Source: a virus (taxonomy: Duplodnaviria; Heunggongvirae; Uroviricota; Caudoviricetes). From it: a stretch of DNA of 31,552 nucleotides. Each line of letters opens with the position of its first letter. Position 1 is the first letter of the stretch. Location of the stretch: positions 64,001 to 95,552 of the IMG/VR virus record IMGVR_UViG_3300035522_000061. One strand, given 5' to 3'. Made by a program: the position numbers and the translations under genes. The notes under the pieces are model-generated. The model was not told the origin of the DNA and searched no databases. It worked only from the letters and a program-made list of their open reading frames with translations. Positions 1 to 22,300 of this stretch are shown here, piece by piece.

Positions 1-1
1 T

Positions 2-3000
2 CATTAGTTTTATATTCTAAGAATATATAGGAGGATTTGTATTTTCTCCCAAATATTCAAATACATTATAAATACCTCTAAATCCATCATAAGATCTAGA
101 AGATCCTCCGTATAAAATTTCAACAGCGGCATTTACTAAAGCATTATTTTTTGGCATCTGTTCTTTCTTAAAATTACTATATGCTGGATTCAATACCTAA
201 CTGTATAGAGTTCCAAAGAATAACCAAGCTAATCCATCTGTAAGTAATTTCATTAAATTTTTTCTTTGCATAGGATCTAACCAAATATCTTCTTTAAAAG
301 TTCCCTATGGAACAGCTTTAAAAACATCATATAAAGTATACATTATACCCTAAACTATTGTTGGGACTTTCTTTAATACTGGCTAAATATGAGTTATATT
401 TTCTGTAGCTTCTATTTCTGTTCCGTCATAATAATATTTAGTACTTCCATTATCCTGTACTGCATATATTAATCTGCCAGAGTTATCAAAAAATAAAGGA
501 CGCCCAGAATCATCTAAATCCTATTCTAGTTTAAATTCGGTATTAGAATATTGTCCTGGTTTTAACATATAATTAGCATAGATGCCGTTCATCCAGGTAG
601 AGAACATTCCAAAGAAAGTTCCCAAAGCCATGTGTTCATATGCCGCTCTAGTACTTTTATCATAAGAACCATATATAGTATCAGCTGCATGTCTAATTAC
701 ATTAACTTCTTGAAAATTATAAGGCATTGGAAGGTCGTCGCTCATTTGAAGAGCCTATTCAGGATGATCTTGATTATATGCTCGTATGGCATTAAAATAT
801 GCTCCCATCTATTCATAATATTTTGGATTACTTTTATTACCTGATGCAAATATTTTAAAACGCTCATCTTTTTTCCAATCATAAACTAATTTCCCATCTT
901 TAATATCAAAAGCATCATAAACTCCATCTTCGTAGCATTTAGCAACAAATAAAGTCATTCTATTAAGAAAATCAGGGGCGCGTAATGTTGAATACATCCA
1001 GTTCTAATAATTAGTTATTCCTCTTTCAGACTTTAATCCTTCTGAAATTCTAGATATATCCATATTTGAAAGTCTATATATCTAGCATAATTGATTTACT
1101 ATGTTAATAGATCGACTATCAGAAAAAGAATTTTTTATTACTGTGCCGTAAGCCTTTGTTAAAGATTTTGGAGATATATTAGTTTGATAATGATTTAAAG
1201 ATCTCATAGTATTTTGCCAAGCGCCTTCAAAAGTGTCTCGCACTGCTCCTTTTATATTTCCAGCAATTAAAGTATTAGATACTAGTCTTCTAAGAGGTGT
1301 AGTTAATCCAACTATTCTTTGAGATGCTTCATCCATAATAGAAGTTCTGAAAACATTTACTTTTACGAAGTCATCAATCATTGAAATAGTCTACTTAACT
1401 ACCTTTTCCATATTTGGATTTTCTCCTAAAATGTCTAACTAAAATAAAACTCCTTTAATAACGATTAAAGCTTTATTTAATTCTCTAGTTTCAATATCGC
1501 GTTCTATAAAATCTGCTAATAAACTTTCTAGATTAGTTTCAAAATATCCTTCTCCATATTCAGAAATATATCCTTCACGAGTTAATCCTTCCATATAGTT
1601 ATTTCTTTTAACTCGTTCCCCTATTAAAAATTTATTCTATAATTTCATAGCTTTAATGCTAACATCTCGTAATTCCTATTCTTCTTTATTATCTATATCA
1701 TTAATATATTCTTCTACTCCTTTTTTTGGATTTTTTAATAATTCCATGGCTAAATTTTTAGCGTAGGATAATTTTTCTTTTATAGAATATTTCTACAGGC
1801 GAGTAGATTTAGAAGCTCTTTCTAGAGGAATATTAAAATAAGTATCAGAATGATTTTTAATAAAAGCTTGTAAATTTGGATCTTCCACACTTGTAAAATT
1901 AAAAGATATTCCCATCATTGGATACCTTACTTTTGCAAATTCAAATAAAATTCTTTTTAAGAATTCCTATTTAACACTTTTATGGCTGGTTATCTAAGCC
2001 ATATCATTAACATCGTAAGGATTTAACAATCTTAATAAATTATGCCCTTGATTATCTTTTCTATATAAATCTTCAAACTACGAAGCCTAATTACCAATAG
2101 TAGCATTCTATAATTTAGTGTATCCAATATCATCGTAATATTTATATAATAATTTACGAATTGGCACCCATTTATTTTCAGCCTACTCGGCTATAGAGTT
2201 AATAGTTTTAGTATATAAATCAACAATTATACGAAAATTTCTATTTGGAACACTACCACTTACAAAACCATATCTATCCATACCACTAAGTACTTTTTCT
2301 GTAGGACTAATTTCTCCAACAGTATAGTAGGTAATAGCATTAACAACCTACTAGTATAAAAGAGCTATTTTTTTAAAGGAAGGATCTTTTAAAAGAACCT
2401 AAAAATCAGTAGTGTCAAGTTGCGGAAATCCGTCTTTTAAAGCTTTTTCAACTTCTCTTAATGCTGTTATTTTAGCCTCGACTGTTTCAGCAGATGCTAA
2501 TGCCCCAAATCCTGTTTCAATTAATTGCTACTTTTCGGATTCTGAAGCCTTGTTATCTTGTATAATCGATTCATATTCCTACAGCAAAGTCTAAAATCTG
2601 CTTATATAATAATATTGTCCAAAGTTATTTTTAATAGTAGTATTTGGTAATTTAGTATTTACATATTGAATAATAGGGGTAAAGCACTCTTTTGATAGTG
2701 TTTCTATGCTAAATGGAATTCCCTGACCTCCATTCCTAAGTGATAGTACTTGTAATTTACCCAATATTAAATCACCTTTTATTTTCGGCAGAACTTGGTT
2801 TAAAAGAACCATTGTTCTAACCGCTTCAATATTACCGTAGTTTGCACGATAATTAAATAAACTTCCAGATTTATTATCGGGTAAATAATATCCCAATACA
2901 GTATTGCCTCTTTTACCTATATTTATTTCAGTTCCTAAATTAAAGGTACTTAAAGTAATTACATCTAATTGATGGGTTATTTTATTTTTAATAAGAATAA

Positions 3001-4498
3001 TTCCAGCGCTATTAAGAGTATCGTTTTCTAATAATTCCCAATCAGAACCCTCTTCCTTAGATTTCTGAACAAAATATTTACTTAATATTTTATGTAAATA
3101 AGCTCCATTTGTAGCATACGCAGAATCAGTTAAAAATGAAGTAATGCCAGTATTAATACCAGCTTTAATATCTTTTAAAAGACGGTGTAATACAACATCA
3201 TTATTAGTATCAAATAACTCTTTTCCATTTCTAATTACATGCTCTAAAATTTCGGTATTTTTTTCTGGTTTTGCATTAGATTTTATGGGAATAATTTTAT
3301 CCTGCCCTAATTCTAACTAATAAGCATATTCAGGATTATTACTATCTAAAATATGAGATTTATTCTTTTTAACCCATTCTAATGCAGTTAATCTAACTCC
3401 ATCGGCTTGAATATCTCTAGCTGGAAATATAAGTTTCAGTTGCTCATTTACTATATCAACATCTTCATCGTTTATAGAATCTAATACTACAGAAGATTTT
3501 ATAAAATTACGGGCAACTTTATCATATTTGCCAAATACATATTTTCCATTAAATACAGTCAATTCAATAGGAGTGTCTCGCATTATTGCAGATTTTACTA
3601 CAGATAAATCATCATTATATTTTATTTTAACAGGAACAATATTTAAAGTAGCGTGACGTACACTAATACCCTAACTTGCCAACATTTGTTTCAGTAAAGC
3701 CATTTGATATTTATACTTTTCCAGCTTTACAGATTGTGGCTATATAGTACTAGTGGTTGTTTTAAAATTAAATAAATGTACATCTCCAGAAGCATCTACT
3801 ACAACCATATCTATATGTCCAAATAAATCTTTGTCTATATTTTCTATTTTATTTTTTATATTTAAATTATATATTATTCTGGAATGCTGTCCCCCATTCT
3901 TTCTGAGTATTCCACCAAGAGTTTTTTCTTTAAAAGTAATATAACTATCCCAAAGCTCTCCTGCTACGGCTTCAAATTTAGTTCCTTTAGCATCACTCTC
4001 AAAATCTTGCCGATCGTAATCTTTAGAACTCATTTTAGATAGTAGAATATGTAAATCTGTACCGTCATCTGCAATTATTTGCCATTTATCTACTTCTTTT
4101 TGAGCAATTTCTTTAGCTTCTTCTTCACTTAATCCTTCTGATACTAATGCTGTTGCGGTCTCAGAAATATAATCAGAATCATGTAATTTATAAATTAGAG
4201 GTTTTCCATTTAGAGTAAATTGATTGGAATCAATAAATTCCTGACCACTTATAGAATCATTGTCTGAAATTATAGGTTCTCCATCAAAGAATGATGTATT
4301 GCTTTTTGAAAATCCTTCTTTCCTAAGTTCTACTAATTTAGACACAATATCTTCCTAAGTTATTAATGCTGCATCTCTGCTAAGTACTAAATCATTGGCA
4401 GTTTTTGCATTTCTCTTTTTTCTGTATTCTTCAATAAGATCTAAGTAACTATGTTTTTTGTTATTTGGATCAGCTTTAAAAGTATATGTACATCCCAT
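2..4498 (-). CDS. Gene F: large virion cargo/ejection protein (>1499 aa, runs off the left edge) with an N-terminal PD-(D/E)xK-like domain
   Basis: ATG at 4498 (MGCTYTFKADPN...), 1 nt after the TAA of gene E. ORF fragments 3740, 3317, 2591, 1082, 809 and 521 share this frame and are joined by TAG. The frame is still open at the window edge (...GENTNPPIYSQNIKLM). Confidence 0.85.
3665..4070 (-). other. PD-(D/E)xK nuclease-like domain within gene F (possibly inactive); boundaries approximate
   Basis: Motif order GTDLH ... FGHIDMVVVDASGDVHLFNFKT ... YKYQMALL matches the PDDEXK_1/Cas4-like pattern (GTxxH, GxID, (D/E)xK, YxxQ). The acidic residue of (D/E)xK is Asn (3767-3769). Confidence 0.7.
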
Positions 4499-4499
4499 A

Positions 4500-6866
4500 T
4501 TAACATTTTTCAATTATATTCTTTTCCTTTATCTCTTTAGCTATCCAATTAGATGCCTCTCTGAATACTTTTCCTGTTTCAAAATCTAAACCTGTGGCAG
4601 ATTTTCCAATATCTTTATTAAATTGTAAAAAAACATTATTTAATTTTCCTTTATATATAGAATCTATATCATCCTCTTTTGCCAATGTAAAAATTCTTGG
4701 AAGAAGTTTATCAACTTCTTCTTTAGTTTCTTCTAAAGCTTCGTCACTAGTTTCCTATCTATTAGTATCAAATATTTCAGAGGAGTTTTTACCAGATATA
4801 AATTCAGAAAATAGTTTTACAAAAGCTTCTTCTGCTACGTCAATATCTGCTAAATTTGGATAAACTTTAGCTTTTAAAAACTATTTTAAATTACGACCTT
4901 TTTCTGTTGCAATTACTTTTCCAAGTAATTTTTCATATGCTTGATAATTGGAAGCCTTTAAAGCACCTAGAATTAAATGTGTGTATTCATGAATTGCGTC
5001 TGCAGAAGTAGCAACACTTCCATTTATATATATTTTACCCTTCCGAATAAAAGCTTTAGTACCAGCAGGTACTTCTGGGAACTAAGTAGTTACTTCATCC
5101 TATGTGAGCACTTTGGCGTTTACATTAAATCTTTCCGTTAAATGTTCTACGACTTCATCAATTAATCCTATGATCGGCTAAGGTCTTTTATATTTACTGT
5201 TTACAGTAATTTTATCGTCAGATAAAGGAATTACATTTAAAATATAACTAGATTGTTTATAACTATTTTCTGCCTATTCAACTTTATGGGAATTCTAAAC
5301 ATAATATCTTAAATAATTATTATTGTCTATAGCGTTTTTAATAGTTATTAAAATACTATTAAATTTATCAGCATTTTCTTTTGTTAATTTTCTATCTTCT
5401 ATAGAATCTCCAGTTTCTTGATTTATTAAATAGGTAAATATTCCAGCAGATTCTATACTATTAACAATATTCTTTAAACTCAAAAACTAAGACTCTGTTA
5501 ATTGTTCTTTAAAGTGTTCATAAAAGTCTTCTAAGGTCTAATCAGATCTTAGCATTGTATATTCATCGTAGTTTAAATGTGTATTTTTATCTAAATCAAT
5601 ATTTAGTAATTGAATACCACTTCCACTTATATGAAAAATATTATTATTTACTTCTAAAGTTCTATTATAACTTCCTGGAAACCGTAATCCTATATCAAAT
5701 AGTTTCTTAAAGGATCCTCTTTTAGAATCCGTATATAAAATATCTATAGCTTTTTTTGCTTGAGCCATATTAGTAAACTCATTAGGCTAATCTGTTGGAG
5801 CAAGTAATCCTCTACTATAAATATAAGATGTTTTATCATCTTTAATATATTTATAAATAGTAAATCCTCTATAATTTTCTACTTTCGTAGTATATTCGTT
5901 AATAGAATCATAAGTAAGATTTAATTTACTATCTAATGTTTGAAAAGCTATTTTTAAAACTATAGCATCCTCATTTATACTCTATACTTTACAAGATAAT
6001 TCGGTTAAATTTTTTTGTATTTCTGTAAATAAATCCTTTACGAATTGTTCATCCTTTTTCCAACCTTTTTTTAATTTAATATTGGGAAAAAACTATTTAA
6101 GTATAAGTTCAAGCTAATCATAAGTAAGAATACTACTATTAGAATCTTTTACTTTATCAGTTCTAGCGTTTAATTCCATATCTAAAGGTTGGCTATATCC
6201 TATATATGAGTTACTAGTTAAAGTCCTAATAGTTTCAGTAAGTAATCCATAAGTTCCGCGTCCAACGGGGGAAGTTCTATATGGAGCATTATTAGTTAAA
6301 AAATCTATTAACAAGTCCTGAGAACTTTTAAATTTCTTTTTTAAAGCTTTTTCTACTATTGGTTTTATTGCCGAAATTCTATCATCTTCTTTGTAACTGG
6401 TTAATACACTATTTTTTGCTCTTAAATGCGCATATAATTTTTTAATACTTCCTGGACTATTCTATACTACGTACACTAAACCCCCTGTACTACTTTTCTT
6501 ATATATAACATCTCTAATATTAATACCATTAAAATCAAAAACGTCTATAAGAAGTATATCAGGATCTTCAGATATATTAGGAAACCCATCAGGATTTGCA
6601 TATTGTAATGTATGAAATTTACAATTACCTACTATACCATCTTTTAAATCCTTTAATTCTACAGCTCGTTTATCATACTTTTTTAAATTTTCAATAATAT
6701 CTATTAAGTTTTCTTTTATTTCTGTATTTGAATTTAAAACCTTAGCTATATTTGTTAAATTTACTGTTTTCGGAATAAGGTTACTGTTTTCTATAACAAT
6801 CTTAGGGAGAGCTTCATCGCCCTCCCTAAGAATACCATTTATATTGAATACTATATCACATCCCAT
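4500..6866 (-). CDS. Gene E: zincin-like metallopeptidase-domain virion protein (788 aa)
   Basis: ATG at 6866 (MGCDIVF), TAA at 4500-4502 (...NIIEKC*). Fragments 6462, 6114, 5538, 5295 and 4500 share a frame. GKIYINGSVATSADAIHEYTHLILGAL gives HExxH at 4977-4991, followed by VAEEAFV (third-ligand Glu, MPTase-like). Confidence 0.85.
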
Positions 6867-6867
6867 C

Positions 6868-9800
6868 TTAACAATTTTCTGTATTAATAATTATTAAACC
6901 TCTCTTTATTAAATTATTTAAAATTCCTACAATCTATGCCACATCATTAGATCTTAAACCTGCAATTGCATTAATTTTTAAATTTGCAAAAGGAGTTTTT
7001 ATGCAACCATAATCATTATAATTCTAAATTCTATTATACTTTATGGCATCATTTTCTTTCTAATCTGCATAATAATCAACATCTGGAACTAAATCTTTAG
7101 GACTTCTATATTGTCCTTTATATTTACGTTTATACATAATTCTGCCATTTATGTATTCTCTGACTATATCCTCATTATGACTACCTTCCTAAGTTTCAGA
7201 AATTACAGGAGCAATTTTATAACGCGCATCATCCATATTAAATCCCCATTCTTCTAACTCAGCTATAGATTCTGGCATTTTAGCATCCACAAAATCTAAA
7301 TCTCCTACATATTTCATAAATGATTTAATAATAGAATCATTTTTTATTATGCCTAAGAAGTTTCCAAATAAAGTAGTCAATCTATCAGAACCAAATTTAT
7401 TTTTATTAACTACTAAATTATATAACATAAACCAATCCGATAAAGGTCTCCCGCCTAATTCATAATTTTGTAATTTAATAAAATCACTTAAACATTCTTG
7501 ATATTTACCTTCATTTTCAGCTGTAGAAACAACATTCTACATATCGAGATTTAATCTTAAAAATCTTTGATTCTCATTATTTAAGTCAAATACTAAATTC
7601 CTTATAAATTTATTGTCCATAGGAAATTCTTTCTTCACTACCTTACCATCTACAACGTCGGAATAATAACCTTGTTTTAATTCTGAAAATAACTTTTCTT
7701 CTATTAATCTTTTAAAAGACCCTCTACTATATTCAGAATCTACTACTATATGATCAAATTCACTTGTAACTGTTTGATCCTCCCAGTTAAAGTCTATTAT
7801 TTTATCATCCTTAAATATAGGATATTTAAATTGCTGCTCATTTAAGAACTTTAATATTAAAACATCATCAACATAATCAATTAATTTTTTTATTTTAAGA
7901 TCGTCAATAACATCATAGTCATCAAATAATTTTGCAGTTAAATTTTCAACAAGGGCAGTCTTTTTTATACAAGTCTATTCAAAAGTGTAGACAGCTTTAA
8001 GAATATCAAATATAGATTTAAAATGAGGTAATTTATCAATTATGTCAAATACATTCCAAGTTCCTTTTATTAAATTATAATAATCGGAAGTAGCTTTACG
8101 ATATCCGTTTTGATTATTTAACCATTTCTAAAAACTAAAAGTATTTACAATTCCTAAATCTTTAGCAGTAGTCAAAATTGTTCTAATTTCTTCTTCTGAA
8201 TATTTAGAATTTCTATCTTTTAATGTTTGTACTAAATTATTAAAATAATCTTCATTTTCAAACTATTTAGCACTTATTGCAAACATCATTTCTTTATTAT
8301 GTACTATTTTATTAATTCTAATATTTAAAGCTATTAATTCTTCAATAGAAGTTGGAATACCCTAATTAAATCCTAATAAAGTAGATCCCAATTCACTTGT
8401 TTCAGTAGCTAAATTATAAACATGCTCAAACTCTTCTAAGTCTGCAATATAATCAGATTCAGTTAATCCAGAATCCTTAACCTTATCAACTAAATTTTCA
8501 ATAAAATCAGATAATGCCATTATTCCATTATTTAATTTAGACTTAGTTGCTTGCTGCGAAGTATCTAAGAAATCAAATAATTCCTAGTCTATTTCTCCAG
8601 ATATTTTAGCAAAGAAGAAATCTTTTAATAATTCATCAAAGTTATATTCTTTTGGAACTAATTTAGATTCTGAAATTTCAGTTTCTGCACCCTCTTCATT
8701 TTTCATTTTCTTGGTAATAGTCTAAGTTTCCATTCCATACCCAGCATCATGTAATGCTTTAGAAACTTTAGCATTAAGAGCTGCAAAAGCTTGATTATAT
8801 AAGGCTTGTGATACATAATTTCCATATTCTTCATCAAGAACTTTAGAAGTACCACTTAAAAACTATTTATATGGAATGTGCCCTCGCATCCATCTTATAA
8901 CCTTATTCATATTTGTTTTGTACAAATATTCATCAAACATATTTACGTTATTAAGATCATTTGCTATAGATACAACAGGACTAGTCATGAAACTAACTAT
9001 ATCATTAATACTGAACCCCATCATAATAAGATGTAAATAACATTTGGCTAAATTAGTTCCAGCATTAATCTTCGCAAGAATAAGCTCCTTAGCATTATCT
9101 GTTGCCGCAGATAATAATTGACTAATTAAATCGTCTGCATAAATACCATTTTCCTAAATATTTCTAACAGCCTCAATTAATTCCTTATTATAAGCTTGCC
9201 ATGTTTCAGTTTTATTTTCAATATCTGCATCTGTGATATTATATTTGGCTCTTAACTCAGCATCAATATCAGAAGCTGCATTAAAATATAATCTTAATTG
9301 TTCGTTATTTTCGAAATTTATATTTGCGATAGTATTCTTAGTGAGGGACTACATATTACCAGTAGATCTTCCTTGTATTCTATTAAAAGTCTAATTAAAA
9401 TACATATTTCTAAGTCTTATCGGATCTCCAGTTATTAATCCTTCATTCCAATAGTGGCTAGTATTAAAGAATACTTTTTCTCCAACGGCTGTAATACCAA
9501 TAACTCCTTTACCTACCATATTTTGTTCTTGCATTAAGAATTTAGTAAGAGGATTCATTAAAGTCATTCTTTCAGATTTACTACCTTTAGGACTTTGTTC
9601 TGATGCCTTACGTATAGAAGACATTGCAATTGGAGAATATGCCTAGTCCATATTTCTTAAATTCTAAATAATATTAGAAATTGAAGAAGAAACAGAATTT
9701 TTTAAGCATCTCTAAATCATATTAGGAGTTATTTCTGTATCCTGATGGCTTTGTAAATCATTAACTATATCTTGAGCTATATTATCGTCTACAGTCCATG

Positions 9801-12800
9801 TTATATATTGATATTGTTTACCCTTAGAATAAGTAATAGGTTTATCTTGTAAAACTCTAAGCAAATCAGCTTCTGCTCTAATCTTTTCTACTTTAGTTGT
9901 TTTAGAAGCAATTTTACTAATATAATCTGAAATATCAAAGCCAGTATCGCTTTTTACATATTTAACACCTTCTGGTATAGGTAAATATTCAGAAGCTCTA
10001 AGAGTATCTATAGAGGAATAATCAAATAAATTACTCCATCCTAAATATTTTCCATTATCATCAAATTCATATCCCATTATATATGCTTTATCAATATCCA
10101 GTATACCCTATGTCTTTCAACATAAGCTCGACTATATCATCACTTGTTATCAAGTGTCTCGCGCTTCGAAACAGCACTATGCTGTGCAATGAATTCTTTC
10201 TTAGTAGAACTTTCTCGTATTTTATATAAAAGAGATGGAACTTGTTCAATATATGGTTTTACTATTTTAATAAATTTATCAGAATCATTGTTAGTACGTA
10301 CTGAAATAGAATATAATTTAGATTTTTCTATAAAAGGTCTAAATTCTATATCCCAGACATCTTTAAAGTACTCTATTATCATCTTACATGTTTCTTCATT
10401 GACACATGTGGATATTTTAATACTTCTTTGAATTGATCCATTTCTTTGTTCTGATTCATTTATATTAATAAAACCATCATCCATAAACCATATGGCAAGA
10501 CCTTGAGCATCCAGCCAATTCAATAGGTTTCTTGTAAAGGTTTTCTTTGGAGTATACACCGAGCGTCTTAAAGCTTTAATAGTGGAATGTAAAGATATTT
10601 GAGAGTATAAAACACCTTTACCTTTATTATATCCGCATGTAGATATATACTCCTTAATTCCATTATTTTTTATACCGAGTTTATTAAGTAATCCAACTTT
10701 CCATTCTAAATATTCTCGTTGCTCTACAGAATGAGAAAGTTTAAAAACATAATTACTAGAGATTGTGCCATCTCCCAGTAATAATGCTATTAATAATCTT
10801 TTTTGTTCTTTACTAAGTGATTTTTGAATTTTTCTTGCCATTTATTCAATAATTTAAATTAAACATTGAATAAAAGTTCTACTCCCTTTCGGGATAGTCT
10901 GTGAACTTTCATCCTTGCAAATATAGTAAATATTTTATCAATTGACTAATCAATTTATATAAATTTTACCTAGGATGCTTAGCTGCGGATTGTCTAATTT
11001 TATATACTTTTTACTATACCAATAGTAATTAATTATTGCCATTAGATGTATTTCTACTCTAATTTAGTATATATAAACTTAAAGAGTTTCCCGCAATTCA
11101 CGAGATTTTATGACTACAATATTTTATCTAGTTTAACTAGAAGGGGTTATGTCATACTACTCTGGTATGGTAGTATCAATAGTCAGAACCCTAAAGCCAG
11201 GTCTGCCAATGGCTTACATAGCATATATTCTTGCTACTCTACGTAAAAGCTACTGCTTTCATCTACATAAAAGACTGTAAAGTCTAAGCAGGGATACGAG
11301 CAGCTGTAAAATATAAAGATTTCAAGAAAGAAGAATAGACTTCCTCTGCAAATTGTGAATAATAATTTACTAAAGCTGCATTATATTTCTTTGTATCTAT
11401 ATTAATATGATCATTTTTTATTTTAGCTGGTTTTAAATATTCTTCTAGAGTTTCATTTAAAAATTCTCCAGCTTTTCCAGTAATGTTTATATGAGGAATA
11501 ATACTCTTAATATGGTCAGCTGATGATGTATACATAGAATCATTAAGTCTTATGCCATTATAATTATTCTCATAATACATTTTAGTCATAATACTTCCAA
11601 TCTATTTATATACATCATTCATAAGTTTATCTCTGAGAGCTTTTACTTTCTAGTCTTTATCTAATTTCTAATATTCTTCTGAATCTGTAAATCCAGTATC
11701 CTTTCCAAAGGCTGATAACATATTCTAAATATTAAAATGTCTTAGATTATAGGTTATAGGATGATTTCCTTTAACTTCAACTATCTAATAGTTAGAAACA
11801 TATTCTTTATATCTATATACAGCGCCTTTATAGTATCTAAGTTCTGGATCTACAATCTCAGTATTATCTTTAGCACTATAAAATTTACCTTTTTGATAAA
11901 CTATATCTTTTGTCTTTATATTCTTACCTACTTTAAATAAAATCTAATTATCTTTTGTGGTAGCATATACTTCATTATTTTTTTCTAAAGTATATTTCCA
12001 ACCAATATTTCTAGGTTTAAATACATTTTCTGGATCTACTTTAGGAGTTTTAAAAGTAATGTAAGTATGTTTACCGCTACCGGTAGTAAATGCCATATCA
12101 TAATGTTTGGAAATAATAGGAGTAATTCTTCTAGGTTTAAAATAATTAGCACCGAAAGATTTTAATTCGGCTAAAGATCTTCCAGAAGTATTGTACTTAG
12201 AAGCATACATATTAGAAATTACTAATTCTGCAGCTTCGTTTTTTAAATTATATATTTTTCTACCTTTGTAAAATCCTTTTTCTAGTTCATCAAACATTTT
12301 CTAAATTTCACGTCTATTCTAAGTAGCATTAAAATTAGAATCTTCTCTATTTAAAAATGACTACACTACTGGTTCTGTTAAGAATACATTAGTAGAGACT
12401 CTATGTGTAGTAGCCTTAGCTAAAGTCTTCAATCCTCTTTCTTCTTCGTAGTAAGTATTTTTACCTCTTTCTACGATAGGATTAACAGTATTTATTACGA
12501 CTGCATAAATTCCTGGAACTTTGCCATCCTCTAATTTTTTCTTAAATATTTCCCGATTTCTTTCAACCCAAGTATTGAAAGTATCCTTACCATATTCTAT
12601 ACCAAATATATCTTTAAAGAATTCTTCATCAGTTTTGTCCTAGTAACCATATCTGGCTTTTCTTTCTTTTAATGTTTTTCCATGACCATTCTTTAAATCC
12701 AGTTCTCCTTTTTTATTTGGAATTTCTTGCCTAACATTCTTTTCGTCAATAGTAAGATCTTTCCAATCATTATTCTATCGACGCCCATTAGACATAATTT

Positions 12801-15800
12801 CTTTTAATTCCCAATAAAGTTTATTCCAGTGGGCAAAACCTTCCACATCCTAACCAGTTCTATTCTAACCATCTACATACTAAATTATAGAATATGGCTA
12901 TTTGGCTACATAAAACTCATCCCCAACTTCAGGTGCCCCAGATCCTTTAGTTTTAACAGCACTGTCGAAACCTCTAGAATAATCAGAATTAGAACCGTGC
13001 CAATATATATCTTTTTCAACACTATTGGGATAAATACTGCGAATGTACTGAGCATAATCTTCATTTGTTGCATTTATTTCCTATAGAGTAGTTGCTAATT
13101 CCGGGTTTTGCTACATTACTACTCGTACCTAATCTAGCGTATTCTAACTTATAGATTCTAAATTAGGAGTTTCAGACTATTGCTAAAGTGCAAACCAATT
13201 TTTAAATTGCTCAATATCCTATGTGGTTCCTAAGAAATGCACATTCTCTTTCTTATTATTTAAAATAACTGCTACATCAGATCCAAATTCATTATCAGTT
13301 TGTTTCCCTAAAATAGCATCATTTGGAGCTTTATCTTCGTCATATTCAAAAGATATTCTAGCAGGAGCTAAGTCTCTAGCCTATGTAACATTTACTGCAT
13401 AAGATATGTCATCTTCAGGATTAAGTTGTCTACCAATTAATTTCTAGATAAAATTTCTAGTAGTTTCTTTTCTATAAACTCCTGTTATATCATTATTAGT
13501 ACGCCCCTCAAAGGCATAATAATTATATGGATCATCAAGTCTTAAAGTAGTTGCATATTCACCATTTATTAAAATATCTACTATATCAGTAGGCTAAAAT
13601 TTAGTATTATCAAATGTTGCCTTCTTCCATTCTTTTTCCTAAAAAGTATGTAAATAAGCAGCCACTAAATTTTTATTATAAATAGCAATACTTTCCTTAG
13701 AAGGGTCAAAATCTCTAAAAAAAGATTCTTTACGTTGTAACTATCTAGCTTTTTTTAATACATCATCAAACTATTCCTCATTTCCATTATACTTAAAAAT
13801 CTAAATAATTCCATATCCCGGTACCATTACACACCCAGATCCTGGAAATTTACGTTTAACGGATTTTTTATTTAAATTAGAAATAAATGTAGGAATGATC
13901 TAAGTAAATAAATTACTATCACTAAGAGGTAACTTAAGATTATCTAATGTATGATCACTTGTTAAATTAAATCTTTTCTTAATTTCCTATACTATAGGTG
14001 TCGCTAAATCTACTTGATCTACACGCTATTTATAATTATTTAATAACGTTTTACCTATAATATCATACATTTCAGATTTAATAGCAATAGTAGGTAAATC
14101 ATTACTTTTCGCTCTAATATATTTAACAGCAGCATTAATTTCTTCTTCAGATGCTTTGGTGCATAAATATCCTAATGTTCTATATACTTGCTTAGATATT
14201 CCATGTAATCGACCCCCAGCTTCCAAAGCTGATATTACCTGAGTAAACTCAGTCATTTGAGCATCGTCAATATCGTGGTCTGCATCCATTTGAATTCCTA
14301 ATCCATTAGAATTTAAAGTCATATACCTTAATTTAGTCTAACCTTTCCAAGCCTCTACACCATTTATATTTGCAGTTCCATTTTTAACAGCAGACTAATT
14401 TGCGGCATAAGAAATCATCATATCCTTTAAAGGTTGATAATAAGTGCTCTAACTCATAATATCACTATCGGCATTTTCTTGTCGTATAGTTACATTATTC
14501 ATGAATCCTACAACTGCATATGAAGAAACATCTGAATATTTAAGAACATTAGTATCATTATCATCTAGTACTCGTTCCATAGAGTAAATACCTCCAAGAA
14601 CATTAAATAATTCAAATAAAGAATTTATATTATGAGTTCCTTTAACTTTCGGAGAAATTCCTCTAAATTTAAGATGATTACTATCAGCATCAAATCTATG
14701 ATATACTTTAACAGGATCTCCAGAACTTACTCTATCACCACTTATATTTACAGCAAATTCTTTAGTATAATAACCAAATTCATCTAATCCAAAATCAACG
14801 ATTCTATAATAGCTGCCATTTTCCTCATAGAATAATTCTCTACCTGCTAATATATCCTAATAGAAATCAATTTTAGTAAAGCCATTCTTTTTATATCCTT
14901 TAGAATTAACTAGATCAAAAGGAACTCCCTTATCATTATTCCAGGTTACCTGCCCATCCTCTCCAACTGTTGTCCATTGTAAATTAGTCATTTGCTTAAA
15001 CAAATCATACAATTTAATATCCGAGTTAAGAGATGTTCGCATTCTTTCATTTGTTATAGTAAATGTTGCAAATTTAAGAAGAGTTGCGGACATTGTTCTA
15101 GTATCGTAACTATGCCAAATTGGTTTCTTATCGACTCCAACTTCCTAATCTTGTAAACCTCTATTTTCAAGAATTGATACAAAAGGATTAATGTACGCAG
15201 AACCATCATGAGCATCTTCAGTATCCGAGTCACCTCTAAAATTAAATATCTTAGCTTGGGTATCTTTAATAACAGCTACCTTCATTTTAGCTGGAACTCC
15301 ATTTAATACATTCTATTGTATATACTACAGAGTAGCAGGAATAATTACATTACGTTTTAATTGAGTACCTTGTGCTACAGCTTCAATTTTAGTAATAACT
15401 TTATCATATAATGGTTTTAAATCTGAATGCTATTTTACCCAAATTAAATCCTTAAAATTATCCTTAGCTTCATATTTTTGATAAATATTTCCATCAAGAG
15501 CATATAAATTCTTATTAAATTCCTGAATAATATTCTATTTAATATTGTCAGAATAACTAAGTTTTGCTCCCATAGGTAATACATTAATAATATTTTTTAT
15601 AAGAACTCCATTTAAATTAGTTCCATCTAATGTATAATTACCTATACCATCAGTTGTCAATACTGCATTTCCTTCATCAGTACTTAACTATATTTCAGTA
15701 TCACTAATTTTTGTTGTTTTAATGTCATTAGTATTAACTTTATTAAATTCAAAATTAGTTCCAGTAGTAAAAAATTTAAAATACTGAGGACTATTCTAAG

Positions 15801-18800
15801 GATTAATACCTAATTTTAATAACTCTGAAGTATAATTAATTTTAGCCTTATCTGGATGAGCAATTTCGGAACCTGTTAATTCAAATCGTAAATTATTAGC
15901 CAGAAGAGTATCAGTAAAGAAATATTTTTCTAATAAAGGATTTAATTCTATAGTATCATTTTCATTATATTCAATTTCGGAACCTTGATAAATATTCGCA
16001 CCATTTACTTTAGCTAATATTAATTTATTATGATATATCCAATTATTCCTATAATGTTCATTTTTAGTTACTGTTGTCGAACCTTCGATCATTTCTTTTT
16101 TAGAAAATACTTCATCAATAATACGAGAAATAGGATTACTAGTTATTCCTTTTCTAATATTGGGATCGTTATCATCAAAATAAGATACATAGAAATTAAC
16201 TCCTGAAGAAAGTAAATCATTTAAAAAATTAAACTGTTCTCGTTTAAAACGATTTACCAAAGAATTTCTATCCGCATATAAATTAGTTGCATAATGATAT
16301 AAAAGTTCATTAAATTTACAATGTTCCCCATTTTTTCTATAATGAGTATCTAAAATTAATGATATTCCTTTTGAATCAGCTAAACTTAATAATTGCTCTT
16401 CTGAAACAGTATTTAACCAAGAATTAACTTCCTCCAAAGAAGCATCTGGTTTACCCATTACATTTTTTAAATCGTTTAGTATATTATTATAAGAATTTAT
16501 ATAAGCCTAACCTACCGTGTCCTAGTATAAATCAATTAAGTTATCACTAGACATTTCCCATATTGATTTATTATCATAAGACTTATTAGGAGCTTTAATT
16601 TTCTTATTAGCCTTAATAGCATAAGTAATAAAAGAAGTTTTATCAGAATAAGTTGTAGGCTATATCAATATAGTTTCATGTAATTTATTTTTAGTGTTAC
16701 CAAATTTATCAGAATTTAATTTAGACTATAAATAATTTCCATAAAAATTCTAGATAATGGAGGAATAAAACAACTCAGATGCCTTCATATCTTTAACACT
16801 CTTTTTTATACCTGTTCTAGATTGTGCATCCTAATTAAGTACAGTTTGTGCAATTAATCCATTGTTTTCTGTAAATAATAATGGCGTAGTAGCCTATCCA
16901 TTCTATTCTTGTTCTGCTTTCTAATACTAAGATAAATAGTATTTTATATTTCCACCTAAAAACGATACTCTACTATTAGCAATTTTATTATTGTTAATAT
17001 CATTAGTAGTAGATTTAGAAATGTCCCCGTTTATTTGAGACTCTATATCGGCTAAATTATCTATCCAAGAATCACTTGTTCTAACAGAAATTAATTTTGG
17101 GATTCCTAAAGTGTTACTTAAAAAGTTTTTATATTTTTCATACGAATTAAAATTCAAATTTCTAAAAGGCAAATACCCATCACTACTTTTTAGAAATTCA
17201 GTAAAATACATTTTATTAGGATATTTTCCTTCTTTCAATTTTACATTAAATCTGTGGTACAAATCATTTACTACAGCAGTTCTAAATACACTTCCTAAGA
17301 TTTCTTCAATGTATAGATTTTTATTAGCGTCATATCCTTTATAGAATAACAATTTAGTTAATCCATCTTTTGATAAAAAATCAGTTCCTAAATAATCGTC
17401 TATTAATTGTATAGTATCCCTAAACAATTTCTCATCAGAAGACAATGCAGAAGGATTATTTCCTAATTGTAGTATTCTATTTATAGAGGATTCGGAAATT
17501 AAATCTATAGTAGAATCTTTTTGATCAAATATTGTATTTAATCTAGGATTTGAAAAAGTTATTTTAATAGGTTTGGAGGATAAAATACCCATATCATTCT
17601 TAGTAGTTCCTGTAATGTAAAAATCCCCAACTTTAATAGAATATGTATGACAATCGTGTCTTCCTAATCGTTTGGACTCTTCGATTGACATATCTTCATC
17701 TATAAGTTGATATTTATCACATAAAGCTTTTCTAAGAGCGTCATTTTTAGTTATAGAATCGTATTCACTATTAATTCTATTTATTACATTATACTAACCT
17801 TTTCTAGCTGCCCCCTTCTTTTTGGTAGTTACTTCTACCATATTAGATTCTTTAGAATACACAGCTTGAGTATAAGTAGAATCCATGGTTCTGTCCATTA
17901 CTCCTGTAATGGCATCTACTACAGAATAACCATTAATTGTAAAACTATTCTTAAGAGCTTCTATTTCAATTCTTCTAATTGAATTTTCATTATTAAGATC
18001 AAAAACATATTTAGCAACTGAAGTAAGTATATTAAGATTAAAATCATTAATTCCGGCAGCTTTTAATTTATAAGCCATTTCAGGTTTTAAAATTTCCTAA
18101 AATATTATTTTACTATATACCTACGGATCATTATGAAAATTTTTAATTGCTTTCTACAGAGTAATAGCATTAGACAATCGATCGGCATTAACGAATAAAT
18201 CTTCTTTAGCACGAGTAAAACTTCCTATAGAACAATATCTATTTAAAAATTTATTTTCGGTTGTTGAATATATTGGAATAGTACTGATTGCTAATTTTGA
18301 AAATTTGCCGATATGATCTAAAGCATTGTTTTTATCGTCGGAAGTTTCCCAACCTTTTACTTTATGTTCATCATCTTTAGCAAATCTGTATTTTAAAAAA
18401 GAAGAATCCATTTCAACATTATTTAATCCGGAATCACTTAATTCTATACTTCTTCCTACAGCATCTTTTAACATGTCGTCAAAATAGATTAAATTAACAT
18501 AAGAATTTAAAGCATCATAGAAGCTATCAGAATATCCATTTAGACGTTTTCTCCAACCTTCTGTAACTAAATCTTCAAGAGTTCTGTTTTCCTAATCTAT
18601 TTTTAAACCTTCGTCTTTAACTTTTTTTAATTCATTGTAGAATTGATTTAAAACTTGTAAATATCCTTTCTATAGTTCACCGTCTTCATTATATAATTCT
18701 TCTCCAAAATTATAATTCGGATTGATAGACTTTAAATAATTTACAATATTTTTAAAATACCTATTTTTAATGTCACATATAGCATCATTTAAATCCGCTC

Positions 18801-19350
18801 GTGTTCTAATAAGCTGCCTATTGTCTACGTCTACAACAGTAACTTTAGAAATATCTCTTCCAAATTGTTCTACTCTATAATCATTTGCTTTAATTACCGT
18901 ACCATAATAATCCTCTACTATATCTCTTAGTTTCTAACTTAATCGATCCTTTTCATTAGGAAAATCTTCAAGATTTTCAATTTCAGGTTCTTCCGGATCT
19001 GTTTCAGTTTTTATATCCTCTGCATTTAATCCAGAATCAGTAATAAAGTTTTCATTTATAGTTTTTAAAAGAGAATCTACATCTACACTTTTCTACAATA
19101 CATCTCTCCATTTTTCAATTAATCCTGTTAAAGTTTGCTATAATAAAGGAATAGACTTTAAGTATTTCTAAGTTTTATTTGTTTTATCTCCAAATTCGAA
19201 AGCGACGGCATCACTTTTAAGAGCATTAATTATTGCTCCATATACTACATCAACTCCTTTACCCTTGTTTTTCCTCGTTGCCGAGCTTAGTATAGATACC
19301 AAGCTCGGACTATGAGTATTATTAAATGTTTCTTTTATACAGTACCCCAT
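6868..19350 (-). CDS. Gene D: giant single-chain virion DNA-dependent RNA polymerase (two-barrel, crAss type); join of exon 1 (19350-11179) and exon 2 (10098-6868), ~3800 aa
   Basis: ATG at 19350 (MGYCIKE), TAA at 6868-6870 (...INTENC*). Splicing restores RIPAQTLQSFMQMK...WQTWLQGSDY|DIDKAYIMG, the DxDxD metal-binding motif. Other motifs typical of this RNAP family: KRNVIIPAT, DAHDG (15202-15216), SAVKNG, GIQMDADH, RKFPGSG and SAATDNAKE (9085-9111). All ORF-track fragments from 19168 to 7189 share one frame. Confidence 0.92.
10140..10841 (-). CDS. Intron-encoded LAGLIDADG homing endonuclease (two-motif, LAGLIDADG_2-like), 233 aa
   Basis: Motifs LLIALLLGDGTI and GLAIWFMDDG. Lys-rich and intact from ATG to TGA. 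It lies between intron elements R and S, and its 3' end overlaps intron hairpins. Confidence 0.93.
   Translation of the reverse strand: MARKIQKSLSKEQKRLLIALLLGDGTISSNYVFKLSHSVEQREYLEWKVGLLNKLGIKNNGIKEYISTCGYNKGKGVLYSQISLHSTIKALRRSVYTPKKTFTRNLLNWLDAQGLAIWFMDDGFININESEQRNGSIQRSIKISTCVNEETCKMIIEYFKDVWDIEFRPFIEKSKLYSISVRTNNDSDKFIKIVKPYIEQVPSLLYKIRESSTKKEFIAQHSAVSKRETLDNK
10841..10874 (-). promoter_or_regulatory. 10-bp RNA hairpin occluding the homing endonuclease start codon
   Basis: mRNA UUUAUUCAAU-(14 nt)-AUUGAAUAAA forms a perfect stem (10874-10865 / 10850-10841). Its last base is the A of the AUG. Confidence 0.55.
10918..10925 (-). promoter_or_regulatory. Candidate Bacteroidota sigma-A -7 promoter element upstream of the homing endonuclease
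   Basis: TATATTTG(C) matches TAnnTTTG, about 75 nt upstream of the HEG ATG, inside the P6 extension of the intron. Upstream TTG elements sit at non-canonical spacing (13 and 25 nt). Confidence 0.4.
12412..13326 (-). other. In-frame 305-codon insertion in the RNAP: ADP-ribosyltransferase-like (ART-PolyVal-like) module with permuted motif order
   Basis: Translation: PNDAILG...GSDVAVIL...NVHFLGTTQDIEQFKNW, then QNPELA...YAQYIRSIYPNSVEKDIYWHGS (H at 12997-12999)...GSGAPEVGDEFYVA...GIYAVVINTVNP...GLKTLAKA. Confidence 0.6.
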
Positions 19351-19367
19351 AAATAATTTTTATTTTA

Positions 19368-22300
19368 TTAACAATTTGTCTTGGAGGTAAGTCCTGCATA
19401 TAATTCATCAACTGCGTCTTCTCCAGCAAGCATTACCTATTCTTCCACAAATGATATTAATTTATTAATACTATCTGAATAATCTTTAGATGTTTTAGAT
19501 TCATTACCATAACTATTGTAGCCGCCTTCTAAGAAATCTACAAATTCTATTAAACTAGGATCCATTTTAAAAGTATCAATAAGCTCCTAATTACTGTTTA
19601 TCCATTCTGTTATATAGGATTTTAGATATTCTAATTTAGCTTGTTGTATTTTTATTAGTTCTTCTTCACTTACTTCTGAATTATTTTTAGCTTTTTCAGC
19701 GGCTTCTTCAATTTCTGTACTTATAGCTTTATTAACAATTTTTTCGACTTTTAAACCATTTTTATTACCTCTTATTACTTTTAATATTGTACCATTTGGT
19801 AAAGTTAATATTAATGTACTATCTTCCCAAGAAATATCTTCAGGATTAATACTTTTAATAGGTTCTTTTAAATTAGCCTTTTCAGAAATTTGTTCAAGAA
19901 TAGTTACTCTAGTAATTCCCGATTCTCCTTTTGACATATGATATATTTCATTACCGGTAACTAACTATTGGCTAAATAATCTTTCGCTATTCTTAGATAA
20001 TTCTTTATTTATAAGTGGGATAAGAGCTTCCTAGATAGCATCGTCATTTTCAGCTTTCTTCTTAATTTTATTTATTTGATCGTCTGAAATACCTAGTTGC
20101 TAACTTTCTGCTATTAAATCTAAAGTCTCTTGAGAATGAGTTTCTGTGGGTTCTATTGGGGGTTCTTCTGTTTCTTCTACCTAAGTCGATTCCACAGCTT
20201 TCTGTAATTCATTTAAAGTAACTACAAATATAGGCATGTCAATATCAGCATTAACCGTTAATAATTTTTCGTTAGTAATACATTTTCTAAACATTGCCTA
20301 ATTATTAATTTCTCCAACAACTTCAGCACCCATTGGATCAATATAAATACCATTTGGAAAATATGCATCAGTTGCGTGCCAATTAGTTCTAGTAGGATTT
20401 GCAGTTGTACCATGGAATGCTAGAGAAATTAAATCATAAAAAGAATTATCATGAAAATCTTCCCCGAGATCTCTAGGTATGTAAATATCACTTTTAGAAT
20501 TTACAAATTCTCCATAATAAAACTTTATATCTTTAGTTTTATCATTAGCGTCTTTTAAAACAATAGGAGCAATATTATAATCCTCATTATACTAATATCT
20601 ATAAAGATTTTTATAAATATACTAAAGTACATTAGGAATATGTTTTAATGCTTCTTTCTTTGGAAACTATATTTCATAATTAACTCCATCTTCTGTAAAA
20701 GATAATGCAGATCCAGTAATTAAAGAAGAAGTTAATCCAGATATTGAATTTCTAAATCCCTCTTTAGTGGTAATTTGTCTATCTTTAGGCCACTCCTTTC
20801 CATCATTTGTTTTAAGTTTGACAGTATCTTTAAGTACAGTTGATATTAGATAATCTAACATTTTATACTATTTTTGAGCTGTAAAAGGAGTTATATATAT
20901 TCCTACCGGAGTTTTATTAAGTCCTTTATAAAATCCATTATCAGCACTAATATTAGTTAGTTCTCTTAAATAGGTTCCCGAACCAAGTCTGCTACCACCT
21001 ACTCGAAATTGTCGTACTCTAGATGCTAAACTATCATTAAAATCTGAAAGTAACTTAAGTTCTTCCTAAGTTGCAGTAGTTTCTGATAAAATTTTGTCTA
21101 CTTCTTCATCTACTTCCTCTGCATTATTTTCTTTATACCATTTAGCATCAGCATATTTAGCAATTCTAACTAGATCTTTATACTCTAAATTATTCTATTT
21201 ACAGAAAGAATCTACAGCATTTATAAAACTATATAAATTAGCTCGATAATTCCAAAGAGCCGCCAGCATTCTAGCTCCCATATAATCTTCCTCAAATGGA
21301 AAAATTTTAATAATCTAGGTTCCGTCTGGTAATTTCTGAGTAGTATTATAAACACTGTGATAGTTCTATTGTATAAGAGTACTAAATGGAATTCCAGCAT
21401 TATCCAAAGGCAATAATCTAACACTATTTCCAGATTCAAGAGGGCTATTTGCATTAATAGCTGTTTTTTGATCTAAATAAATTTGCATTAGATCATTTGG
21501 ATTTAAAGTAGTGTCATTAGATACAAATACCACAGCTTTTCCTCTAATAGCATCACTATTTACTCCGTTAAAGTTACTTCCAATATAAATGTAAGGATCA
21601 GAAATAACAGTATAGGGATGTGTTTTTCTAAATGTTTCTAGATTTACAGTTGGGACTGGTTTTTTATATTCTCCAACTCCAGTAAATTTTCTAATACTTG
21701 TAAGGCTAGAAAATATTGGAGTTACATCTTTATAAAATACATTCCCATTATCTTTATATTGCTAGGTCATTGCATCAAAAAGTGCCCTATACTATCTAAT
21801 TTTAGCTTTTACTGCTGGTTTATCGCTTTCTTTTACTTGATCGGAAACATAGAAACTATCGGGATTAGCTAGTAATCCTAAAGTTATTTTGCAAGTTTCT
21901 TCTTTATTATTTTTGAATTCTCCTACTAAAGTATAAACTAGACCATTTATTTCTATTTTATTGTTTCCAGGCCCGTCTGTTTTTAATCCTGTGAAACCTA
22001 CAAAACTATCAGAATCTTTTCTAGGACGAATTTCTATTTTATATTTTATTTGTTCAAGATGTTTAGCATTAACTACAGAAGCTACAGAACTAGGCAAGTC
22101 ATCTAAACTTTTACTATAAAGGATTACCGATTTTAATCCTAATAAAGTAGTGACTAACCCATTTAATTCAGCACCGCTTGTTATTGTGTCTTTATCTGTA
22201 AATATCTACAAGTCAGATTTTATAGCTTTTCTAGGATTTACATAAGATACAATTTCTTTACCCTAGGCATCTTTAGTTACAACACGATTTAAACCAGCAA

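Follow-up and report, generated by a model that had tools for sequence, protein, structure and literature searches.

Facing cysteines at gene breaks suggest an end-to-end link between giant cargo proteins of crassviruses

Among phages of the human gut, crassviruses are the most abundant. Internal proteins of podoviruses such as T7 (gp14/15/16), P22 (gp7/16/20) and N4 (vRNAP) are pushed out in unfolded form by way of the tail, before the DNA or together with it, and the structure of crAss001 raised the question of how several megadaltons of cargo pass in order through a narrow tail. The stretch of viral DNA analysed here (31,552 nucleotides, hereafter the window), from a crAss-like gut phage, encodes four consecutive giant proteins, C, D, E and F, that carry cysteines where the end of one faces the start of the next. 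This arrangement suggests that the facing termini of the cargo proteins are linked end to end by pairs of cysteines.

Terminal cysteines and gene models in the window

Reading the minus-strand genes of the window with TAG as glutamine gave the coordinates in Table 1. The original prediction held that C, D and E each end in a cysteine directly before the stop codon, and that D, E and F begin with a cysteine-bearing peptide (MGYC in D, MGC in E and F); the gene models bore this out. They likewise confirmed that the D/E and E/F junctions (6879-6858 and 4511-4490) are identical at 20 of 22 nt, and that the A/B and B/C junctions are without the pattern. Cysteine is as rare in the window's giant proteins as had been claimed (32 of 10,151 residues, 0.32%), and six of these 32 are the six facing ends. 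Because cysteine makes up only 0.32% of residues, the terminal pattern is far beyond chance: three ends with a cysteine before the stop have a chance probability of about 1e-7, and three starts with a cysteine at position 3 or 4 have the same probability of about 1e-7. Among the 171 ORFs of 100-699 aa in the same loci, a cysteine lay near the N-terminus of 7 and near the C-terminus of 6, as against 26 and 27, respectively, of the 48 ORFs of at least 700 aa.

Table 1. Genes, intron and junctions in the window, with the protein ends and the codons of their cysteines
Feature	Position	Strand	Product or sequence	Protein start	Protein end
Gene C	19368..28715	-	3,115 aa giant protein; SF1-helicase-like P-loop region	MKEND, no Cys	KTNC-stop, Cys codon 19371-19373
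Gene D exon 1	11179..19350	-	2,724 aa; virion-type RNA polymerase	MGYC, Cys4 codon 19339-19341	
Gene D exon 2	6868..10098	-	1,076 aa		TENC-stop, Cys codon 6871-6873
Group I intron in gene D	10099..11178	-	LAGLIDADG homing-endonuclease gene at 10140-10841		
Gene E	4500..6866	-	788 aa; HExxH (zincin-like) motif invariant	MGCDIVF, Cys3 codon 6858-6860	IEKC-stop, Cys codon 4503-4505
Gene F	1..4498	-	1,536 aa in total, 37 codons beyond the window edge; last link of the proposed chain	MGCT, Cys3 codon 4490-4492	KAEKKK-stop, no Cys
C/D junction	19339..19373	-	TGT TAA, 17-nt spacer, ATG GGG TAC TGT		
D/E junction	6858..6879	-	GAA AAT TGT TAA, G, ATG GGA TGT		
E/F junction	4490..4511	-	GAA AAA TGT TAA, T, ATG GGA TGT		

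Gene D as one open frame was rejected, as a 1,080-nt group I intron interrupts it inside the catalytic DYDID motif (GSDY/DID, the slash marking the intron site). The intron ORF matched PHROG family phrog_11023 (E=7.5e-19) and was flanked on both sides by sub-threshold matches to Rfam Intron_gpI. Splicing restores ...WLQGSDY/DIDKAY..., the same junction sequence as in uninterrupted homologues, in a product of 3,800 aa. This giant single chain contains the catalytic D[FY]DxD motif of the RNA polymerase (RNAP), which lies at position 1361 in phi14:2 g066 and at 1483 in crAss001 gp50. BLASTP of the window against RNAPs of named crassviruses matched a single pair, D exon 2 and crAss001 gp50, with marginal similarity (E=1.5e-4 over 236 aa). 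For gene C, the Pfam matches AAA_30 and AAA_19 both fell under their cut-offs. Together, C, the RNA polymerase D, the zincin-like E and F are best explained as the form that the Crassvirales transcription/cargo block takes in the window; elsewhere in crassviruses the block comprises two or three proteins or is partly one giant fused chain. By homology, all four are most likely packed and injected as virion cargo.

Conservation of the terminal cysteines

The near-identical D/E and E/F junctions, each with a 1-nt spacer, could reflect a stop-start cassette in DNA or RNA that serves translational coupling or frameshifting and encodes the cysteines incidentally. The two window junctions are alike because each writes E-x-C, stop, M-G-C in AT-rich codons, and the operons of relatives, four full ones (L004-L007, 27-36% identity) plus L001 and L002, refuted the cassette. 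Their D/E and E/F junctions agree at just 12-17 of 22 nt, and the cysteines are kept as cysteine codons (TGT/TGC), stop codons (TAA/TGA) and spacing (from a 4-nt overlap, -4, to +21 nt) diverge. The cysteine is also preceded or followed by varying numbers of residues, and one partner gene lies on the other strand in crAss001 and DAC15. We therefore give the cassette, which the original prediction had listed as an alternative, practically no weight. As judged from this divergence, the comparison shows that the six terminal cysteines are under selection at the level of the protein and not as part of a DNA cassette. Fusion by frameshifting or readthrough was rejected as well, the frames differing at the junctions (the C/D spacer is 17 nt), as was a lipoprotein or myristoylation signal, for want of a signal peptide and of a conserved Gly2.

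Terminal cysteines were kept in homologues down to 27% identity, and their placement followed gene adjacency as predicted: they occur at facing ends only, and the outer ends of the chain, the start of C and the end of F, never carry one in the window or in the relatives' operons. In these operons, C has a cysteine within its last one to four residues (ends NCKV, PCR, YCKLS and NCKI), and D and E have one among their last three. The N-terminal cysteine of D, E and F stands at position 3-5, with F beginning MEC, MKNC, MGGC, MGNC or MSC. Among D homologues, 32 of 32 begin M-x(1-4)-C, and the cysteine is the last or second-last residue in 13 of the 13 that are full-length (12 end in NC and one in NICE).

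A profile search for the E family returned 661 hits. Cysteines were present in both the first eight and the last four residues of 121 of the 124 full-length cluster representatives, the N-terminal one lying as far in as position 8 in some members, and interior cysteine amounts to 0.20%. Across 60 diverse homologues the sole invariant residues (numbered as in the relative P0006) were M1, C3, N628, E640, H643, Y657, E694 and C790, with H639 kept in at least 90%. The six terminal cysteines are about as conserved as the putative catalytic residues of E. The HExxH motif and a downstream Glu ligand are conserved as in zincins, and on this motif we regard E as a putative zincin-like protein. Neither Pfam nor PHROG gave a hit to assign the fold or family of E, and Foldseek against the PDB found nothing significant, its best rows being anthrax lethal factor at an E-value of only 0.05; an AF2 model of E had a pLDDT of 82. 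No close relatives of E were found in a scan of viral contigs, and tblastn against a phage collection gave one weak hit. Because the E-family HMM has no match in crAss001, a separate E family is not shared by all members of the order. A search for longer proteins, itself weak evidence, returned no fused forms of E. P0175, a polyvalent-type protein of 4,544 aa, was considered as such a form and rejected: it is an unrelated polyvalent protein with only the zincin stretch in common with E.

The same facing-end rule was found in the window, six relatives and seven other phages (phi14:2, crAss001, DAC15, crAss002, cr4_1, cr118_1 and the cyanophage Lbo-JY46). Phi14:2 has only four cysteines in 5,398 aa, every one at a facing end: one in g067 (the last residue), two in g066 (positions 3 and 2179 of 2180) and one in g065 (position 3). 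In crAss001, gp47 has a single cysteine, third from its end, gp50 begins MSKRC, and gp49 has a single cysteine at position 5; the C-terminal cysteine of gp50 is the ninth residue from the end, so that "terminal" is loose there. DAC15 obeys the same rule, and both it and crAss001 keep it with the first cargo gene on the opposite strand. A single break with a single cysteine pair is present in each of cr4_1, cr118_1 and Lbo-JY46; a third protein of Lbo-JY46 has a lone cysteine at position 5 without an evident partner.

Fused forms of the block (cr4_1 gp26, 4,491 aa; cr118_1 gp14, 4,946 aa; crAss002 gp33, 4,245 aa) contain the window's modules in the same order, and their remaining break still has a cysteine pair. 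Where the window has a cysteine pair they have a peptide bond, and release would presumably be by a protease and not by reduction. No cysteine pair was found near the fusion point of cr118_1 gp14 or cr4_1 gp26, with boundaries in cr4_1, cr118_1 and crAss002 estimated from motif offsets and not from alignments; cr4_1 retains a single cysteine (2180) near its estimated boundary. BLAST placed the boundary in crAss002 gp33 only imprecisely, and Cys2140 of that protein (...KYSC) is at most a possible remnant of the former RNAP end. A "single huge polyprotein" form of the cargo block was noted by Drobysheva et al. The original prediction had offered a split ancestral polyprotein as an alternative to linkage. 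It belongs to the linkage reading instead of competing with it: fused forms exist and are without the cysteine pair.

Predicted pairing of facing termini and the nature of the link

At each break in the block, a short strand and a cysteine close the upstream protein, and M-x(1-4)-Cys with a strand opens the downstream one. The tail of D is a helix, then a glycine, then a short strand (IIINTENC). We co-folded the C-terminal 300 aa of D with the N-terminal 260 aa of E from relatives, using self-made alignments (the D part is 50% and the E part 39% identical to that of the window); in this part of D, Cys300 and Asn299 are nearly invariant among 10 homologues. The adjacent termini passed their controls, with ipSAE of 0.61, 0.55 and 0.63 against 0.00 for the best of three controls; for comparison, 58 of 80 solved complexes and 2 of 110 mismatched pairs attain the mark applied. 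The partner had a pLDDT of 70 or more, and the runs agreed in no less than 39% of their contacts. No sequence-similar solved structure was found for the co-folded parts. Contacts joined D 291-300 to E 2-11 in an antiparallel register (294:8, 296:6, 298:4, 299:3), and besides the strands a helix packed on the helices of E, giving a large interface. The terminal strands of D and E are thus predicted to run antiparallel with the two terminal cysteines side by side; the lowest-error pairs listed included 297, 298 and 299 with 3 but not the direct Cys300-Cys3 pair.

Comparative sequence and this predicted model together support reading the terminal cysteine pairs as a chain that would link adjacent proteins, and the link between paired cysteines would most likely be a disulfide. 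Our best reading, to which we give slightly better than even confidence, is that a split polyprotein is joined again head to tail, its staples most likely disulfides. The helix and strand at the C-terminus of D would dock to E at its N-terminal domain, and the paired terminal strands would resemble a beta-hairpin with a cut turn. The cysteine pair would then act as a covalent staple, most likely a disulfide formed in the virion, making C-D-E-F one head-to-tail thread that runs N-to-C throughout, a pseudo-polyprotein. This thread could be packaged, and could leave through the tail, as a single unit, and would come apart once the host cytoplasm reduces the bond. Its fullest form, in which hairpin complementation and a single disulfide per break turn more than 9,000 residues of separate cargo into one linear N-to-C thread, a redox-cleavable substitute for a polyprotein that sets the order of extrusion and permits protease-free disassembly, we advance tentatively, leaning slightly against it. 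Reducing conditions in the host cytoplasm and the anaerobic state of the gut are a counterpoint to a disulfide.

In a metal bridge, which the original prediction also allowed, the facing termini would pair as predicted and the cysteines with nearby acidic residues (such as E-x-C and C-D) would bind zinc or iron; such a site can form in a reducing cytoplasm. There is a conserved Glu two residues before the C-terminal cysteine of D and E, and an Asp after Cys3 of E. However, each junction offers just two thiols, acidic residues are missing beside some of the cysteines (NTIC at the end of phi14:2 g067, MSCK at the start of g065), and the near-total purge of other cysteines is better explained by avoidance of wrong disulfides; we consider the metal bridge unlikely. 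The large co-fold interface might by itself suffice to hold the termini together, leaving the cysteines never bonded and free for another use, such as a redox or packaging signal or protease recognition. This purely non-covalent complementation of split domains would leave unexplained why one cysteine stands on each side of every break, in divergent families and with variable flanks, and why fused forms lack the pair, and it seems to us quite improbable.

Pairing with partners other than the neighbour is very unlikely. The even number of cysteines in three- and four-protein systems permits rings (D and E closed, C joined to F) or homodimers of the same protein, and crAss001 gp57 provides a symmetric 47-47 disulfide. 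Rings are impossible in the two-protein systems (cr4_1, cr118_1, Lbo-JY46 and crAss002), where each protein has one facing-end cysteine; homodimers would not require both ends to co-occur; and the co-fold joins the C-terminus of D to the N-terminus of E.

Joining without oxidation, by intein-like trans-splicing or by a peptide bond formed as in native chemical ligation after removal of a leader, would account for cysteines that flank the junction and for "...NC" ends that resemble intein junction residues. The 0-3 residues after the C-terminal cysteine and the 1-7 before the N-terminal one leave no room for intein blocks, and the Asn before the cysteine is missing in E (EKC, ERC, EEC). The suggestion that Met removal exposes Gly-Cys as a ligation nucleophile failed too: Gly2 is not conserved, and 1-6 variable residues separate Met1 from the cysteine. 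Such joining appears to us highly improbable. Split inteins are also two separately encoded halves rejoined with a cysteine at the junction; unlike them, the window's junctions have no intein domains or conserved His-Asn, and the product is predicted to be disulfide- or metal-linked instead of peptide-linked.

Relation to known cargo systems

We know of no head-to-tail cysteine rule among podovirus ejection proteins. Our search found no published description of the terminal-cysteine rule or of an end-to-end link in crassvirus cargo, and the cysteines of the cargo ends are not mentioned in PMC10172136 or bioRxiv 10.1101/2020.03.07.982082. The former reports many inter-subunit disulfides in crAss001 virions and identifies gp47, gp49 and gp50 as virion cargo; in the latter, phi14:2 gp66 is the crystallised virion RNAP, its termini disordered in the crystal. 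Disulfides between separately encoded proteins occur in the tail barrel, the fibre hubs and the portal-vertex protein gp57 of crAss001 (Bayfield et al. 2023). Those are lateral bonds between structural subunits and seen in density, whereas the ones proposed here would run end to end between cargo proteins that the density does not resolve.

The blocks of phi14:2 (g067-g066-g065) and crAss001 (gp47-gp50-gp49) are, like the window's, made of giant cysteine-poor proteins arranged around a central RNAP. Each has three links, whereas the window has four, with the separate 788-aa zincin-like E between RNAP and F; unlike them, the window uses TAG as Gln and has a group I intron in its RNAP gene. A head-to-tail link at every gene break offers a concrete hypothesis for the ordered packing and extrusion of cargo, and would, if true, be a natural design for reversible protein concatenation. 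As an aid to annotation, the M-x(1-4)-C rule points to true start codons, for example in crAss002 gp33, and helps to assign giant ORFs to one chain in metagenomic genomes with recoding and many introns.

Cysteines at the facing ends of successive cargo proteins

Translated with the standard code, the region falls apart into short frames; once TAG is read as Gln, giant genes appear, all running in the same direction on the minus strand of the window. With this reading we confirmed the originally noted Cys-stop ends of C, D and E and MG(Y)C starts of D, E and F (Table). F continues for 37 codons beyond the window edge and its C-terminus, read in the window's own record, lacks Cys. The accompanying observations also held: the two 22-nt junctions (D/E and E/F) are identical at 20 of 22 positions, the A/B and B/C junctions of the window lack the terminal-Cys pattern, and Cys is rare in the giant proteins (32 of 10,151 residues, 0.32%), with 6 of the 32 at facing ends. 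ORFs of at least 700 aa in the same loci contain 0.27% Cys and carry Cys near an end in 54-56% of cases, against a background in the other ORFs of 1.41% Cys and Cys near either end in about 4%.

Table. Genes and intron of the window, and Cys placement in cargo proteins of other phages
Feature	Coordinates	Strand	Description
Gene C	19368-28715	-	3,115 aa; start MKEND, end KTNC*
Gene D	19350 to 6868	-	3,800 aa spliced; start MGYC, end TENC*
Group I intron with LAGLIDADG gene	10099-11178	-	1,080 nt; interrupts RNAP gene D within catalytic DYDID motif
Gene E	4500-6866	-	788 aa; start MGCD, end IEKC*
Gene F	from 4498	-	1,536 aa; start MGCT, end KAEKKK*
phi14:2 g067			1 Cys, last residue
phi14:2 g066 (crystallised RNAP)			2 Cys, positions 3 and 2179 of 2180
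phi14:2 g065			1 Cys, position 3
crAss001 gp47			1 Cys in 2,341 aa, third from end
crAss001 gp50			start MSKRC; further Cys ninth from end
crAss001 gp49			1 Cys, position 5
DAC15			same terminal-Cys rule
crAss002 gp32			only Cys is second-last residue
crAss002 gp33 (fused)			internal M-S-C at 33-35, probably true start
cr4_1, cr118_1			first two modules fused; fusion product, Cys fourth from end; next protein, only Cys is residue 3
Leptolyngbya phage Lbo-JY46			protein with only Cys as last residue, then protein with only Cys at residue 4

A profile search with E over 1.84 billion cluster representatives returned 661 matches, of which 124 full-length representatives were scored. Cys lies within the first 8 residues in 121 of the 124 (position 3 in 84, position 4 in 26) and within the last 4 in the same 121 (last in 36, second-last in 75), while interior Cys amounts to only 0.20%; homologues at about 40% identity all begin MGCDIVF and all finish ERC. 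Across 60 diverse aligned members only M1, C3, N628, E640, H643, Y657, E694 and C790 are invariant, and at least 90% retain H639, part of the HExxH motif. Besides the Cys at each terminus, the invariant set makes up an apparent zincin-type site. D homologues have an M-x(1-4)-C start in 32 of 32 and, in all 13 that are full-length, Cys as last or second-last residue (12 NC, one NICE). Six related operons (D at 27-48% identity) repeat the arrangement: C lacks an N-terminal Cys but carries one among its last 1-4 residues; in D, E and F a Cys occupies position 3-5; D and E have another among their last three residues; and F has none at its C-terminus. In the most distant relative (L006) the distance of Cys from the C-terminal end is 2-4 residues (YCKLS, NICE, NCNG), so the rule tolerates a short tail beyond it. 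The C/D and D/E junctions of this locus are ATGA stop-start overlaps (10001-10004 and 19561-19564), and E/F is an 8-nt overlap (21905-21912).

A reused translational-coupling cassette had been offered as an alternative, and the 20/22 junction identity would favor it. Terminal Cys is retained, however, while its codons alternate between TGT and TGC at every terminal position in relatives, stops are TAA or TGA, stop-start distance ranges from a 4-nt overlap to 21 nt, and two junctions within one relative's genome match at only 12-17 of 22 positions. We therefore rejected a DNA cassette: the window's 20/22 reflects E-x-C stop M-G-C written in AT-rich codons. One Cys at each facing end is under protein-level selection.

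Predicted docking of the ends and a putative chain

The C-termini of D and E look alike: an amphipathic helix and a Gly precede a short alternating strand, which is capped by the Cys. At their N-termini, E and F have Cys followed by a hydrophobic strand and Gly. We co-folded a 300-aa C-terminal piece of D (8-row alignment) with a 260-aa N-terminal piece of E (25-row alignment), both taken from relatives' database proteins. Three runs gave ipSAE values of 0.61, 0.55 and 0.63, and none of three controls exceeded 0.00. That mark was attained by 58 of the 80 solved complexes and by 2 of the 110 mismatched pairs, counts that are only approximate because our own alignments were supplied. The partners had pLDDT values of 70 or more, and the runs agreed in 39% or more of their contacts. 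No solved structure is similar in sequence to the co-folded parts, which makes it unlikely that the predictor merely reproduced a known complex. Confident contacts join E 2-11 with D 291-300 in antiparallel register (294:8, 296:6, 298:4, 299:3), and the last helix of D also packs against E helices 53-63 and 74-82. The predicted register places D's last residue, Cys, beside E Cys3, and the modeled joint resembles a beta-hairpin with a cut turn. When E is modeled by itself with AF2 (pLDDT 82), the N-terminal strand forms and the C-terminal tail stays coil, consistent with a tail that requires a partner.

The best-supported reading is that C-D-E-F form a chain: facing ends would dock, a covalent staple, most likely a disulfide, would join the facing Cys, and the stapled proteins would make a head-to-tail thread of continuous polarity. 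Purging the other Cys would avoid wrong pairings, and the reducing host cytoplasm would release the parts. The ordered chain originally proposed is supported by conserved Cys at facing ends and by the predicted docking; its suggestion of Gly-Cys as a ligation nucleophile was rejected on conservation and junction data, as was intein-like splicing. Other crassviruses carry the same modules in one chain, a "single huge polyprotein" (bioRxiv 10.1101/2020.03.07.982082). crAss001 virions contain many inter-subunit disulfides, cargo proteins gp47, gp49 and gp50 must traverse the tail unfolded, and N-to-C ejection is proposed for gp45 (PMC10172136). One-chain blocks, crAss001 disulfides and cargo passage, and the Cys purge fit a thread. 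A metal bridge between facing Cys is possible, as is a purely non-covalent joint; the Cys may also pair otherwise, in rings or homodimers, although two-protein systems argue against rings.

Reach of the rule across phages

The terminal-Cys pattern is genuine and is maintained throughout the order Crassvirales. The phi14:2 block has four Cys in 5,398 residues, every one at a facing end. The rule does not require the genes to be adjacent: the first gene of crAss001 and of DAC15 is encoded on the opposite strand from the other two. In crAss002 gp33 (L010:7270-7374) the true start is probably 32 codons downstream of the annotated one, at the M-S-C of residues 33-35; such a start agrees with the M-x-C pattern and would put its Cys opposite the only Cys of gp32. 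Around the fusion points, placed approximately by motif offsets, there is no Cys pair (one Cys in cr4_1, none in cr118_1). In short, terminal Cys number twice the breaks in the block. Three genes upstream of its two Cys-paired proteins, Lbo-JY46 also encodes XAI97385 (L013:626-2650; 674 aa), whose lone Cys is residue 5 (MKKKC) and has no evident partner; the two intervening genes are Cys-free.

The Cys of these proteins go unmentioned in the crAss001 structure paper (PMC10172136), the phi14:2 RNAP preprint (bioRxiv 10.1101/2020.03.07.982082), a survey of crAss-like genomes from 2021 and the Zeta-group paper, and full-text literature searches did not find the rule elsewhere. The window adds a four-link version with E separate. 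It further contributes an E family whose only invariants are catalytic residues and two Cys, a controlled co-fold with Cys predicted side by side, and a demonstration, from aligned junctions, that DNA similarity there is secondary.

The interrupted D gene and its surroundings

The ends noted for D stood, but its reading frame is not continuous: the intron interrupts it. Across the splice junction D reads WLQGSDY|DIDKAYIMGYEF, exactly as uninterrupted homologues do, and the MGY at 10077 is therefore an internal stretch rather than a start. This in-frame ATG (MGYEFDD; 10075-10077, minus) lies seven codons into exon 2 and is internal in those homologues; it looks like the MGYC start of D itself and leads ORF callers to list exon 2 as its own gene. 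The homing-endonuclease ORF (10140-10841, minus) has zero in-frame TAG and is readable under either code; the RNAP exons around it are rich in TAG=Gln (67 in exon 1). In one relative (L001:5261-6678) the insert holds an unrelated 371-aa HTH-type ORF in place of LAGLIDADG, and exon 1 (P0019) terminates six codons earlier than the window's, after SHWQTW. Many database D homologues terminate after SHWQTW or after LQGSDY, pointing to at least two neighboring insertion points, a hot spot.

C residues about 1589-1891 (23400-24000, minus) form a P-loop, SF1-helicase-like region, for which Pfam AAA_30, AAA_19 and Viral_helicase1 all scored below cut-offs. The whole record (G000; 95,552 bases, the window being 64001-95552) has an estimated completeness of 53%, and relatives carry the same operon on contigs of 160-180 kb; the phage is therefore crAss-like and large, recodes TAG and has several introns.
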